A stretch of 41,697 nt of DNA from positions 1 through 41,697 of IMG/VR virus record IMGVR_UViG_3300020045_004948. One strand, 5' to 3'. Of the stretch, positions 7,756 to 32,873 are shown piece by piece; position 1 is the stretch's first letter; every line of letters starts with the position of its first letter. The notes below the pieces were generated by a model, which saw nothing but the letters and a program-made list of their open reading frames with translations, was not told the DNA's origin and did not search any database. A program made the position numbers and the translations under genes. The stretch is from a virus (Duplodnaviria > Caudoviricetes).

Positions 7756-7781
7756 TATAAGAGGGGATTAGCCCTCTTATA
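7756..7781. terminator. Bidirectional terminator hairpin
   Basis: TATAAGAGGG-GATTAG-CCCTCTTATA, 10-bp stem at convergent junction. Confidence 0.75.
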
Positions 7782-8598
7782 TTTTACAAAAACAATCTTT
7801 TAGCGGTTCATCTGAAAAATTAAACAAACTCCTTTGATCTAATTTGATAAATTCATTTTCATAATCATTAGTAGTTTTAAAATTAGGAAACCAATATTTA
7901 TTTTTGATCTTATTTCCTTGTAACTCTAATCCATTAAGATGATCTTCTATAATTTTCATATATTGCCAATCTTCATTAAAATATTTCCAAACATTAAACC
8001 AACTTTTTTTGCTTTGAGCTGGGCACATTCTGCAACCAGTCCTATTGAAGTTTTTATAAAGTGGATTTTCCATTTCTTGATCTAGTAAATATTTTTTACA
8101 ATCAAATTCACTCATATTAAAATAATCTATTAACGGGTATATAAATTTATCTTCTTTCATTACTCTATTTTTTTCATCATTCGTATACCCTATATAAATC
8201 TTATGCTCTTTTATATTTAGTTCTTTAATTAGATCATCAAATGCTTTTACTTTGCTTTCTCTTCTCCAATAGCAAGGCTCACTCCAAACCATTGGAATAC
8301 CTCTAATATATCCATCATATAAAGCACCTTTCTTATTTATTTTACCATAGCACCAATCTTCAAATGTACTTTTTGGCTTAGTAACAATTACTTCTTTATT
8401 GTATCTTGATCTAAAGTATTCTTTTAACTTATCAATATAGACATACATAGATTTAAATTCTTGTAAAGTGTCATAAAAAATAATATAATCAACTGGATAA
8501 CCATTTTTTAATAATAGATCAGTTTGTACTGTCGAATCTTTGCCACCACTAAGTGTTGCAATATAAATTATATTTTTTTCTATATTATGCATCTTCAA
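7777..8598 (-). CDS. PAPS reductase-family (PP-loop) protein
   Basis: SGGKDS PP-loop, IGYTNDE, YPL, RTGCRMCP, C-terminal CFC. Confidence 0.88.
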   Translation of the reverse strand: MKMHNIEKNIIYIATLSGGKDSTVQTDLLLKNGYPVDYIIFYDTLQEFKSMYVYIDKLKEYFRSRYNKEVIVTKPKSTFEDWCYGKINKKGALYDGYIRGIPMVWSEPCYWRRESKVKAFDDLIKELNIKEHKIYIGYTNDEKNRVMKEDKFIYPLIDYFNMSEFDCKKYLLDQEMENPLYKNFNRTGCRMCPAQSKKSWFNVWKYFNEDWQYMKIIEDHLNGLELQGNKIKNKYWFPNFKTTNDYENEFIKLDQRSLFNFSDEPLKDCFCKI

Positions 8599-25191: not shown

Positions 25192-25449
25192 CTAATTAAC
25201 TGCTAAAAGTTCAATCCAAAAGAACTTATTATAATTTTTATCTTCTATGTTTTGCCAATATTCACTAGCCATATATAAAGATAAATTATCATCATTTAAC
25301 TCAAAATACATAATTTTTTCTATTTGCCAATCTATATTTTTAATTTCAACTTTTATTTGAGTTTCATCATATTTTTCCAAAGTATATTTAAAACTATCCC
25401 AATCGTTTAACTCATATTTTAAGAACCGTTTAATTTTTGTTTCTAACAT
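25192..25449 (-). CDS. Hypothetical protein
   Basis: AGGGG RBS; first gene after leftward promoter. Confidence 0.7.
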   Translation of the reverse strand: MLETKIKRFLKYELNDWDSFKYTLEKYDETQIKVEIKNIDWQIEKIMYFELNDDNLSLYMASEYWQNIEDKNYNKFFWIELLAVN

Positions 25450-25479: not shown

Positions 25480-25508
25480 ATAATAAAACAAAATCAAACC
25501 AATGTCAA
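25480..25508 (-). promoter_or_regulatory. Sigma70 promoter, leftward
   Basis: TTGACA-17-TATTAT on minus strand. Confidence 0.8.
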
Positions 25509-25545
25509 GCAATCTAACCTAAAAAACAAAATAAATTTTAACAAT

Positions 25546-25560
25546 GTTACTATACTACAC
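25546..25560. promoter_or_regulatory. GTTAC-N5-TACAC box shared by divergent promoters (one of 12 copies)
   Basis: 74 nt from rightward -10 and 75 nt from leftward -10. Confidence 0.75.
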
Positions 25561-25596
25561 AAAAATAATAAATTACAAAATTTAGTAAAATATCAC

Positions 25597-25625
25597 TTTA
25601 CATTTTAGATTTAATGTATTATAAT
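25597..25625 (+). promoter_or_regulatory. Sigma70 promoter of the ncRNA locus
   Basis: TTTACA-17-TATAAT. Confidence 0.8.
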
Positions 25626-25630
25626 TCTCT

Positions 25631-25752
25631 TGTTGTAAAGTTTTCTCAAATTTTCTTTATAACACAGTTGCTTTTAGGCATTGTAACATTCATTTTTCGT
25701 TTAAACCTCCTTTCTTGGTATCGGATAGAATTGCAACTATCCGATATTTTAT
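25631..25752 (+). ncRNA. Putative sRNA with anti-Shine-Dalgarno/anti-AUG seed
   Basis: 5' hairpin 25631-25664; unpaired ATTCAT...TTAAACCTCCTT; perfect 10-bp hairpin 25719-25746 plus T tract. Confidence 0.55.
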
Positions 25753-26028
25753 GTTTTTGTAGTGAGTTTTAGTCTATGTGAAAATGACTATACTTACTGC
25801 AAAGATATTGCAAAAGGTATCTTTAGAGTTATTACCTTAAGTAATAGATGATGGATTTCTTATTTTTGTAAGTTTTTTATTCATGTTAAACTCCTTAGTG
25901 GACTGCCTAAGAACCTCGAACCACATTAAAAAAAGGTGATTTAAAAGCTAGACTGATACTTAATCTGATTAGTCAAAATATTTACTCCGTGGGTTTCTCG
26001 GAGAGGTTGACATAGAAACATCTAGCCC

Positions 26029-26087
26029 AAGACCAGCACGGCTGACGAGGATTTAAAATCCGAAACTTTATAGTACCGTGGAGTCTT
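26029..26087 (+). ncRNA. Type I hammerhead ribozyme
   Basis: Stem I CACGG/CCGTG, core CTGACGA, stem II GGATT/AATCC, GAAA, stem III ACT/AGT, GUA cleavage triplet (cut after 26075). Confidence 0.85.
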
Positions 26088-26145
26088 CCAACTTGGGGAA
26101 TAACTGAAGACCTAGACCTCTCAACTTTCGAAGTAAGTATTTAAT

Positions 26146-26237
26146 GGATAATTGTTCGAGTGGCTTATGAAGCTGTTTTGCTAAAGCAGAGATGTATTAA
26201 AAAGCATCCAAGGGTTCGAATCCCTTATTATCCTCCA
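26146..26237 (+). tRNA. tRNA-Ser (anticodon GCT)
   Basis: Acceptor GGATAAT/ATTATCC, anticodon arm CTGTT-TTGCTAA-AGCAG, long variable arm, AAGGG-TTCGAAT-CCCTT, encoded CCA. Confidence 0.92.
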
Positions 26238-26351
26238 CTTTATTACCAATCGTAACACTTCATAAATTTAACCTCAACAAAAATCAAAAATCATTTACAA
26301 CTTTTAAAAATCTAGTTATAGTTTGGATATTAAAAATAAAAAGGAGTTAAA

Positions 26352-26582
26352 ATGACATTAAGCGAATTAATCAAAGAATATGGAGATGATAGTATCATTT
26401 TTCAAAATTTAGATACCGATATGATTTCTATGGATAAAAGAAAAAATTATTATGAAATTAAATTTGGTACAAAAGAAGGCTTTAATCAAGATTTATCAGG
26501 AACAAACAAAAGGGCTTTAATTGTTTGGATGGATAGAGAAAAAACACAAGCTATTTTAGATAAAAATAAAAAGGAGCTTTAA
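26352..26582 (+). CDS. Hypothetical protein
   Basis: TTTACA-17-TATAGT promoter; AAGGAG RBS. Confidence 0.75.
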   Translation: MTLSELIKEYGDDSIIFQNLDTDMISMDKRKNYYEIKFGTKEGFNQDLSGTNKRALIVWMDREKTQAILDKNKKEL

Positions 26583-30406: not shown

Positions 30407-30526
30407 ATGCAAACTATAAAAATAGATAATGTTGTATGGAAAATACAAGATATAAAAGGAAATATTTATACATTAAAAAATGATAAATATATTATTTCAA
30501 AATTAATGGATGGTATAAAATGTTAA
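30407..30526 (+). CDS. Small hypothetical protein (39 aa)
   Basis: AAGGAG RBS after promoter. Confidence 0.55.
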   Translation: MQTIKIDNVVWKIQDIKGNIYTLKNDKYIISKLMDGIKC

Positions 30527-31668
30527 AAGATATTGAAATTGAAACAAAAAATATAATTACAAAATTGCTTACTTTAGAAAAAGATGAGTTAATTGAAAAC
30601 TTAAATTATATTAGAGAACAATTACATAAAATAAGTCCATTTAAAAATGAACCAGTTGATTTTGTTAAGTGGGTTAAAAATACAAGTGTTGGAGCCAATG
30701 ATTATAATCCTAATACTGTTGCACCTCCTGAAATGGAATTATTAAGATTATCAATTGCAAGTGATGGATATACTCAACCTATTGTTACATGGTCTCATTC
30801 TGAAAGAGTAGAAAATGAAGTAATTGATGGTTTTCATAGACATAGAGTAGGAAAAGAATGTTTAGATATTCAAAATAGAATACATGGTTATCTTCCTATT
30901 GTTGCATTAAGTGAAGATAGAGAAAGTAAAAATGACCGTATGGCTTCAACTGTTAGACATAATAGAGCTAGAGGAAAACATAAAGTTGATGCAATGTCTG
31001 ATATGGTTGTTGAATTGAAAAATAGAAATTGGTCAAATGCTAGAATTTGTAAAGAGCTTGGAATGGATGAAGATGAGGTTTTAAGATTATGTCAAATTAC
31101 TGGATTACAAGATTTATTTAAAGATGAAGATTTTAGTAGGTCATGGGATGCAGTAGAGTGTGATATTGGATTATGGGAAGATTTAACAGATGAAGTAACA
31201 GAAATGGAAAAAGAAAGATTAAATTTAAGAAATACCGTGAATGCTTCATATGATAGAATTTTTCATACTTATGAAAACTGGGAGTGCTACAAAGCTGGAT
31301 TTTTTGCAACAAAAATGAGTAATTTTACAAAAGACCAAGCAGAAGAAGAATTTGCAGATTTTTTAAAAAATGAACATGATTTTGATTTGGCATTATCTGA
31401 ATTAATTTATGAGTGGAAAAATTCTTGTGAGCAAAATTTATCAAATATTGCATTAAATAGAATTGCGTGGCTAGGTCAAGCAGCTGCTTGTTATGCAAGA
31501 GGTATTCCATCAAAATATAGAGCTGGATGGTTTAGATTAACAGCAGAGCAACAAGATAGAGCAAATAATATAGCATTAAAGTATTTAAATGTATGGTTAG
31601 AAAATAATGGAAGAAAATCAATTACAATGGAAGAAGCAAATATCGCAAGACAATCGGAGTTATACTAA
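30520..31668 (+). CDS. IbrB/YbdM-like ParB-N domain protein with extra C-terminal domain
   Basis: ANDYNPNTVAPPEMELL, DGYTQPIV, IDGFHR, STVRHNRARGKH. Confidence 0.88.
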   Translation: MLKDIEIETKNIITKLLTLEKDELIENLNYIREQLHKISPFKNEPVDFVKWVKNTSVGANDYNPNTVAPPEMELLRLSIASDGYTQPIVTWSHSERVENEVIDGFHRHRVGKECLDIQNRIHGYLPIVALSEDRESKNDRMASTVRHNRARGKHKVDAMSDMVVELKNRNWSNARICKELGMDEDEVLRLCQITGLQDLFKDEDFSRSWDAVECDIGLWEDLTDEVTEMEKERLNLRNTVNASYDRIFHTYENWECYKAGFFATKMSNFTKDQAEEEFADFLKNEHDFDLALSELIYEWKNSCEQNLSNIALNRIAWLGQAAACYARGIPSKYRAGWFRLTAEQQDRANNIALKYLNVWLENNGRKSITMEEANIARQSELY

Positions 31669-32873
31669 TGAGAACTAAAAAATATAATGAAATAAATGTT
31701 TTAGATGCTAGTAGAGAAAGAATAAAAAATATATTTGATGGATTTGAAAGTATTTATATTTCTTTTTCAGGAGGTAAAGATAGTTCAGTAATGACACATT
31801 TAGTTTTAGAAGAAGCAAGAAAAAGAAATAGAATAGTTGGATTATTAATTATTGATTTAGAAGCTCAATATACAGATACAATAAATCATATTTTATATAT
31901 GGTAGAAGAATATAAAGATAACATAGATTTACATTGGGTATGTGTTCCATTATTGCTAAGAAATGCTTTAACAAATTATGAACCAAGATGGATTTGTTGG
32001 GATGAAGATAATAAAGATATTTGGGTTAGAAATAAGCCAATACAAGCAAAAGAAAAAAAAGATTATCCATTTTTTATAGACAAAATGGAATTTGAAGAGT
32101 TTATGGTTTTGTTTGGTGAATGGTACGGTAGAGATACTTTAACTGCTGCATTTATTGGAATTAGAGCAGATGAAAGTTTACATAGATACAGAGCAATAAC
32201 ATCATATAAACATGGGAAAACTTATAATAATTATGATTATACTTCTTTGGTAGAAGAAAATTTATATAATATTTATCCTATTTATGATTGGAAAACAGAA
32301 GACATTTGGAGATTTCACGGAAAATATCAACATTTAAAACATAATGAAATTTATGACAAAATGAATATGGCTGGTGTAAAGTTATCACAACAAAGATTAT
32401 GCCAACCATACGGAGACGACCAAAGGCAAGGGCTATGGCTTTATCATATTTTAGAACCTGAAACATGGAGTAAAGTAGTTAATAGAGTTAATGGTGCTAA
32501 TAGTGGAGCTTTGTATATTAAAGAAAATGGAAATATGACTGGATATAATAAAATATCTAAACCTGATGGACATAATTGGGAAAGTTTTGTTAATTTACTT
32601 TTGCAAACATTACCTAAAAAAACTGGATTACATTATAAAGATAGATTTAAAAAGTTTATCAAATCATGGCAAGATAGAGGATATACAAAAATACCTGATG
32701 AAGCTCCTGAAGATTTAGAATCTAAACAATGGGTTCCATCATGGAGAAGAATGGCAAAATGTATTTTAAGAAATGATTATTGGTGTAAAGGATTAGGACA
32801 ATCTCAACCAAAATCAGATGCTTACCAAAAATTTAAATATTTAAAATCTATTGGTTCATTATCTAAAAATTAG
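31668..32873 (+). CDS. IbrA/YbdN-like PAPS reductase + DUF3440 protein
   Basis: SFSGGKDS, GIRADESLHR, YPIYDW, PSWRRMAKCILRNDYWC. Confidence 0.9.
   Translation: MRTKKYNEINVLDASRERIKNIFDGFESIYISFSGGKDSSVMTHLVLEEARKRNRIVGLLIIDLEAQYTDTINHILYMVEEYKDNIDLHWVCVPLLLRNALTNYEPRWICWDEDNKDIWVRNKPIQAKEKKDYPFFIDKMEFEEFMVLFGEWYGRDTLTAAFIGIRADESLHRYRAITSYKHGKTYNNYDYTSLVEENLYNIYPIYDWKTEDIWRFHGKYQHLKHNEIYDKMNMAGVKLSQQRLCQPYGDDQRQGLWLYHILEPETWSKVVNRVNGANSGALYIKENGNMTGYNKISKPDGHNWESFVNLLLQTLPKKTGLHYKDRFKKFIKSWQDRGYTKIPDEAPEDLESKQWVPSWRRMAKCILRNDYWCKGLGQSQPKSDAYQKFKYLKSIGSLSKN

Follow-up and report, generated by a model that had tools for sequence, protein, structure and literature searches.

Hammerhead ribozymes have been reported in the intergenic DNA of phages (Perreault et al. 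2011, PMC3088659), and why phages carry them is an open question (PMC6765202). Theta ribozymes are pseudoknotted phage RNAs whose 5' boundary often lies at the 3' end of a tRNA (Kienbeck et al. 2024, PMC10879173). GOLLD and ROOL are structured RNAs of phages and prophages, of unassigned function and often near tRNAs (Weinberg et al. 2017, PMC5737381). The locus described here lies in IMG/VR record IMGVR_UViG_3300020045_004948, a complete 41.7-kb tailed phage record; the whole stretch analysed, 41,697 nucleotides, is called the window. It holds a hammerhead that shares with the type I class (RF00163, clan CL00010) the CUGANGA/GAAA/NUH core and an open stem I, but here the 3' strand of stem I also belongs, as a conserved element, to a separate, structured RNA; the portions of Perreault et al. 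(PMC3088659) consulted describe no such host RNA.

This host RNA, hereafter the core, is like theta ribozymes a pseudoknotted phage RNA. Of its hammerhead-less copies preceded by a tRNA, 13/30 have their 5' boundary 0-3 nt from that tRNA; the window copy does not. Unlike theta, the core is twice the size and built of two equivalent halves, and its hammerhead forms avoid tRNAs. Instead of the P1-P1.1-P2-P3-P4 order of theta and HDV-like ribozymes, with a catalytic C in J4/2, it consists of two hairpins with swapped tails, and the HDV-like Rfam models gave no match in the window region and the loci scanned. Like GOLLD and ROOL the core is structured, phage-borne and often tRNA-adjacent, but at ~95 nt it is about six times smaller than those multi-junction RNAs of >500 nt, has no Rfam match, and shows an optional internal ribozyme and circular permutation. 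It shares with two-piece permuted tmRNA and other permuted RNA genes, as presented in Eckert et al. 2023 (PMC10085705), a single fold specified by circularly permuted genes and the possibility of two paired pieces; here, however, an embedded ribozyme rather than host nucleases is predicted to make the break, and there is no tRNA-like domain. The HRIMA motifs of PMC10085705 are from the neighbourhood of hairpin ribozymes in metatranscriptomes.

Terminase, portal, head, endolysin and replication genes were assigned in the window with PHROGs. The region of the hammerhead is gene-free, the leftward ORFs ending at 25449 and the rightward ORFs beginning at 26352, and BLAST of this region against GenBank phages returned the tRNA only. 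The sigma-70 promoter scan of the window found none directly ahead of the RNA; upstream of the cassette (25480-25625 and 25717-25748) are divergent 11/12 sigma-70-like promoters and a terminator-like hairpin. A weak match to a preQ1-aptamer model on the minus strand at 25863-25930 (13.6 bits, E 9.8) is probably chance. Elsewhere the window has two PAPS-reductase-like genes (7777-8598, minus strand, and 30520-32873, plus strand), one of them beside a ParB-like gene. The features of the region are as follows.

25976-25986, plus strand: 5' arm of the optional outer closing helix P0, 11 bp with 26132-26142, z -2.2
25987-25992, plus strand: half B lead, N-CGUGG; its first base, C25987, matches C26076, and G25991 pairs with C26104
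25993-26019, plus strand: hairpin Z, stem GTTTCT (25993-98) with AGAAAC (26014-19), with compensatory changes of four pair types
26001-26007, plus strand: 5' strand of helix Y, in the Z loop
26020-26025, plus strand: conserved AUCUNG; G26025 pairs with C26089, and A26024 faces A26090
26026-26031, plus strand: helix W strand CCCAAG
26037-26080, plus strand: type I hammerhead, an optional insert, with core and three stems; predicted cut A26075/C26076
26037-26041 with 26076-26080, plus strand: hammerhead stem I, CACGG with CCGTG, 5 bp, open
26042-26048, plus strand: hammerhead core strand CTGACGA
26049-26053 with 26057-26061, plus strand: hammerhead stem II, 5 bp, closed
26062-26065, plus strand: hammerhead GAAA
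26065-26067 with 26072-26074, plus strand: hammerhead stem III, 3 bp, closed
26073-26075, plus strand: hammerhead NUH triplet GUA
26076-26082, plus strand: lead of half A, N-CGYGGA, which is the stem I 3' strand and is kept in hammerhead-less copies
26083-26111, plus strand: hairpin X, stem 26083-88 with 26106-11; its loop carries the W partner CUUGGG (26092-97)
26098-26105, plus strand: conserved GAAUAACU in the X loop, family form GAAUAA(C/A)U
26112-26122, plus strand: CUAG linker and 3' strand of helix Y (26116-26122)
26132-26142, plus strand: 3' arm of P0
26146-26237, plus strand: tRNA-Ser(GCT), the sole tRNA in the window, a separable neighbour in the same variable cassette

An earlier note on this DNA had read the region as a complete type I hammerhead nested in a larger folded RNA directly upstream of the tRNA, and all the segments that it listed sit where it had placed them. 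As a motif the hammerhead is indeed complete, with all core bases and the three stems. The 44-mer on its own folds as a hammerhead, and the hammerhead descriptor found this one site in the window against 1 match in 300 same-length first-order Markov genomes. From the known consensus, cleavage is predicted after A26075. The core is conserved among homologues, with CUGANGA kept in 52 of 55 hammerhead representatives; the stem I pairs covary, position 4 included, and position 1.1/2.1 is Watson-Crick in 118/118. In the scan with hammerhead models that the note had proposed, the window copy had no Rfam hammerhead match at E<=10, and its homologues matched RF00163/RF02275 weakly (E 7e-4 to 0.6, best 30.4 bits against a gathering threshold of 34). 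The Rfam gathering run over the whole window also failed to detect the tRNA. About 15 of the 55 representatives (L039, L072, L092, L053, L175 and others) have variant stem II junctions with extra unpaired bases on the core side, and the hammerhead of Mycobacterium phage Gaia has UUGAUAA in place of CUGANGA. The hammerhead at L028:601-639 begins its stem I in the same way, but the structure downstream of it is different and it lies outside the family. Taken alone, the hammerhead merely adds one more ordinary example to an established class, and the novelty lies in its host RNA.

Judged from the homologues collected, the predicted window hammerhead is a module that may be present or absent in a ~95-nt RNA core common to many unrelated phages. 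Copies of the core were gathered by half-specific scans with no hammerhead requirement and a modular parser, and the total of matching stretches is estimated at ~140 viral and 810 metagenome; the search patterns partly dictate the invariance of the anchor motifs. At least 244 distinct copies were obtained, 134 with half B, hammerhead and half A in the order of the window (B-HH-A) and 87 with the halves alone (B-A); the permuted copies are 22 HH-A-B and 1 without a recognisable hammerhead. Already in the hammerhead pattern scan of viral contigs, 32 of 36 loci parsed as the larger shared RNA. The architecture-blind scans gave, among the matches listed, 94/119 with a hammerhead, 20 without and 5 unparsed in viral contigs, and 55/120 with, 42 without and 23 unparsed in metagenomes. 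GTDB gave 14 matches, mostly MAG contigs, and both halves were seen in all of them on inspection. The scan for B variants returned mostly chance matches (115/120 unparsed), and no convincing copy of one half alone was found among the inspected A-scan and B-scan loci.

The hammerhead insert always ends exactly at lead A. In most hammerhead-less copies the halves are joined by 0-5 nt (61/82); a second ribozyme class in the hammerhead slot was considered and rejected, the 21 longer linkers (13-37 nt) resembling hairpins or remnants by eye. Hammerhead presence has some tree signal (50 changes against 61.6 shuffled). The family spans phages of Actinobacteria, Proteobacteria and Cyanobacteria, and among cultured phages Arthrobacter phage Constance and Gaia, whose core is variant, are B-HH-A, Microcystis phage Mwe-JY26 is B-A and Enterobacter phage SDFMU_EhYP is HH-A-B. 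Tandem copies occur in L030 and L049, each pairing with its own partner strands, and are given as a route to the permuted gene form. A tmRNA gene, itself permuted, is found at L023:18-273 (minus strand), 169 nt downstream from a permuted member of the family. A small hairpin, GAC-N5-GGAAAGAC, recurs beside family members (7/181 B-first representatives); loci with it include L004, L021, L026, L066 and L079.

The core is made of two similar halves. Each has a 6-bp hairpin, and the loop of this hairpin pairs with the tail of the opposite half. The lead, the helix ends (GU...AC) and the tail, CU(A/G)G, are common to the two halves, which would seem to derive from an ancient duplication in which the tails were swapped. 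The strongest covariation among 197 representatives (<88% identity) falls on the Z, X, W and Y pairs, most of them with all four pair types. X, Z and W were required to pair at 5/6 positions for parsing and Y was taken as the best-pairing segment, which makes the pairing percentages circular in part; Y averages 7.9 bp, against 4.7 for mismatched partners. In 12 equal-length hammerhead-less copies (of 32 listed), 20/28 pairs change on both sides, a figure reached in 0/500 shuffles, with slid controls at 3-7. Three tertiary couplings outside the selected helices covary as well: position 5 of lead B, coupled to the C/A in AAUAA(C/A), is G-C in 161, U-A in 30 and other in 6; K6-m1 is G-C in 188, U-A in 6 and other in 3; and K5-m2 is G-C in 117, A-A in 28, U-A in 16 and A-U in 10, with others. 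The minimum free energy fold of 25970-26145 has a z of only -1.7, because the structure is pseudoknotted.

The larger fold claimed in the earlier note is backed by the homologues, in a different form. GAGAGG/CCTCTC (helix Y) is conserved and covaries, and so are GTCTTC/GAAGAC (X) and CCCAAG/CTTGGG (W); these last two had been taken for competing pairings, but they are constitutive and kept in hammerhead-less forms. Helix Z (GTTTCT/AGAAAC) is a conserved helix missing from the note. The homologue comparison did not bear out TCTAG/CTAGA, which shows no covariation. The proposed stem I extension AAGAC/GTCTT is possible in 3/104 homologues, below the cross-pairing control of 5.8, and is put down to chance. 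With X and W constitutive and the extension a chance pairing, the suggested gating of cleavage by alternative pairings is not supported. The outer helix is present in the window (z -2.2, ending 3 nt before tRNA-Ser) but is optional in the family, with z<-2 in 23/61 representatives.

Rfam 15 left the core unmatched in the window region and in 42 loci scanned, hammerhead-less copies included. Literature searches with keywords and with literal motif strings in full text found no description of it. It was not found in the readable supplements of PMC10690425, two other files of which may include it as an unnamed candidate. We conclude that the predicted core RNA is uncatalogued.

A further regularity concerns the first base of each lead. 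The first base of lead B (25987) is identical to that of lead A (26076), which is directly 3' of the predicted cut, in 189/197 representatives (121 C/C, 38 G/G, 28 U/U and 2 A/A). Several scans fixed one lead base as C, but the two scans that fixed neither gave 132/138 matched copies. The matched base has no tree signal (67 changes against 66 shuffled; the alignment is short and the tree weak), yet among 52 disjoint close pairs differing at one site, 48 are matched at both leads; the misparsed L244 was left out of this and the tRNA counts. No other column tracked the matched base among the core and flanking columns, and the identity is absent from the flanking bases (11/77) and from lead position 4. 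This suggests a symmetric contact of one lead with the other, a pair of equal recognition sites, or a chemistry in which the leads would interchange. Parallel symmetric like-with-like pairs at CG steps are described for DNA in PMC4330391, and a limited look at the literature found no RNA precedent for such pairs. Covariation of the kind "same base at two sites" would be overlooked by standard base-pair analysis.

The surroundings differ between the two forms. Among B-first representatives with 150-nt flanks (101 hammerhead, 68 hammerhead-less), a tRNA lies within 250 nt of 15/101 hammerhead forms against 38/68 hammerhead-less forms, and within 40 nt downstream of 6/101 against 22/68, whereas the outer helix is present in 48/101 against 12/68. 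The metagenome scan alone gave the same picture (tRNA near 3/32 against 22/34, outer helix in 19/32 against 6/34); the Fisher tests count related copies as independent, so their p-values make the trends look stronger than they are. Of the hammerhead-less copies preceded by a tRNA, 13/30 begin 0-3 nt past the discriminator, 9 of them at exactly 1 nt, and the other 17/30 begin 6-33 nt from the tRNA; none of seven hammerhead copies begins at 0-3 nt. No neighbouring tRNA was found on the opposite strand among 182 representatives. A -10 hexamer stands 4-9 nt ahead of lead B in 19/101 hammerhead forms, and the family-wide -10 excess is modest.

The earlier note had tied the ribozyme to the tRNA. Besides the scarcity of tRNAs near hammerhead forms, this is contradicted by relatives of the window phage found as contigs in wastewater runs: their slot at 25978/25984-26238 may be vacant, be filled by other inserts, or contain the RNA but no tRNA, and a 274-nt contig of a close relative joins 26143 to 26239, so that the RNA is present and the tRNA skipped. 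The RNA in these relatives differs by only one or two substitutions, and the absence or replacement of the cassette fits an accessory gene. The other inserts in the slot (25978-26238) are of 148-403 nt and may be further non-coding RNAs; elsewhere the slot has the tRNA behind a different hairpin. From these distributions, the tRNA is unlikely to be the target of the predicted hammerhead.

We lean, by a modest degree, towards a reading in which the hammerhead cut would free the 5' end of lead A and leave a paired two-piece RNA that likely acts in trans, perhaps as a stable two-site decoy. The maturation role of the hammerhead is its more secure part and appears probable; the decoy for a host ligand or protein, taken by itself, is its weakest step and rather less likely than not, though it fits the symmetry of the core. 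The two leads would be equivalent, and the fold would depend on a free 5' end at one lead or both. In hammerhead-less copies, tRNA 3' processing or a promoter would supply this end at lead B; where lead B is tied down by the outer helix, a linker or mRNA, the hammerhead would free lead A, and would thereby perform a circular permutation after transcription. In all three architectures lead A is preceded by a minimal linker or by a hammerhead predicted to cut exactly at its first base. The window product would be two pieces, 25976-26075 and 26076-26145, held by W, Y and P0 and equivalent to the permuted gene form; of the two outcomes foreseen in the earlier note, this nicked RNA is the one the predicted fold supports, and a free 70-nt product is unlikely, as W and Y would keep it bound to the 5' piece. 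The matched first base might be a like-with-like contact on a two-fold axis, or might set the specificity of a pair of equal binding sites. That the RNA acts in trans is most likely, given the lack of a constant neighbour gene among 224 ORFs from 42 loci, the tRNA-like packing and the accessory distribution. Some copies run counter to the model: 43/101 hammerhead forms have neither outer helix nor tRNA and 19/101 have the -10 hexamer before lead B, so that lead B may already be free and the hammerhead redundant, and 22/68 hammerhead-less copies likewise lack both features.

That the core is itself a ribozyme, cutting or swapping strands just 5' of the N-CGYGG leads, is an unlikely alternative that draws on the same regularities. 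Such a core would trim upstream tRNAs, as theta ribozymes do, and, with the hammerhead, release and circularise the B-HH piece. It would found a class of catalytic RNA of its own, with a pair of equivalent sites at the leads, able to permute or circularise itself with the help of the inserted hammerhead and bearing the matched, freely varying first base as its signature, a doubtful proposition. The nested double pseudoknot with conserved junction bases is consistent with it, as are the theta-like position of lead B 0-3 nt past the discriminator in 13/30 (compare PMC10879173) and the predicted hammerhead cut at the symmetric position ahead of lead A. The identical first bases (189/197), together with a U at lead B position 4 (90%) that pairs with A or G, mean that lead B could replace lead A in stem I, and this fold is predicted at -21.6 against -23.6 kcal/mol. 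However, the matched base is equally strict without the hammerhead (26/28 hammerhead-less close pairs matched at both leads), so re-ligation by the hammerhead is not its sole cause. The strands do not follow the HDV-like order, the Rfam ribozyme models gave no match to the core, the 17/30 copies that begin 6-33 nt from the tRNA do not fit, and release by host RNase Z/E also accounts for the tight tRNA packing.

A cis-acting element of late transcripts, in which the hammerhead would cut the mRNA and the knot clamp or protect the ends and tune the neighbouring genes, is quite unlikely. In ~15/42 loci the ORFs closest to the RNA include head, packaging or connector genes (our own count, without a control), the RNA lies between terminase and portal in L006, L045 and L175, and hammerhead forms are mostly outside tRNA arrays. 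But head genes occupy a large share of any such genome, which leaves the gene association unproven. Moreover, hammerhead-less copies lie between tRNAs, with no gene to regulate, and in the window a tRNA comes next, not a late gene.

The proposal that the hammerhead serves tRNA-Ser 5' leader processing, gated by alternative pairings, now looks very improbable. The outer helix does end 3 nt before the tRNA, and L006 is arranged similarly, but only the 6/101 hammerhead forms noted above have a tRNA within 40 nt downstream, the predicted cut is 70 nt from the tRNA, contigs show strains with the RNA but no tRNA and the reverse, and the "competing" helices are constitutive. We give equally little credence to the core acting as single-stranded DNA or as the recombination site of a mobile element, with the matched bases flagging a pair of homologous crossover points. 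The core has few G-U pairs (69/4704 cells, against 26/676 in hammerhead stems), the slot that holds the RNA is hypervariable, tandem copies exist (L030, L049), and the symmetric pairs at parallel CG steps are a DNA precedent (PMC4330391); against this, the copies are strictly co-oriented with tRNAs, the hammerhead is fused in register, the identity does not extend to flanking bases or lead position 4, and no shared recombinase is nearby. A riboswitch was rejected in view of the mixed neighbour genes and the many copies between tRNAs.

Returning to the maturation reading, the same RNA with, without and behind the ribozyme provides natural controls, and the pattern points to a job for the hammerhead, which would be to create a free 5' end within an RNA other than its own. 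The fold of the host RNA is compact and highly constrained, and as all three forms are present in cultured phages, the proposal is directly testable.
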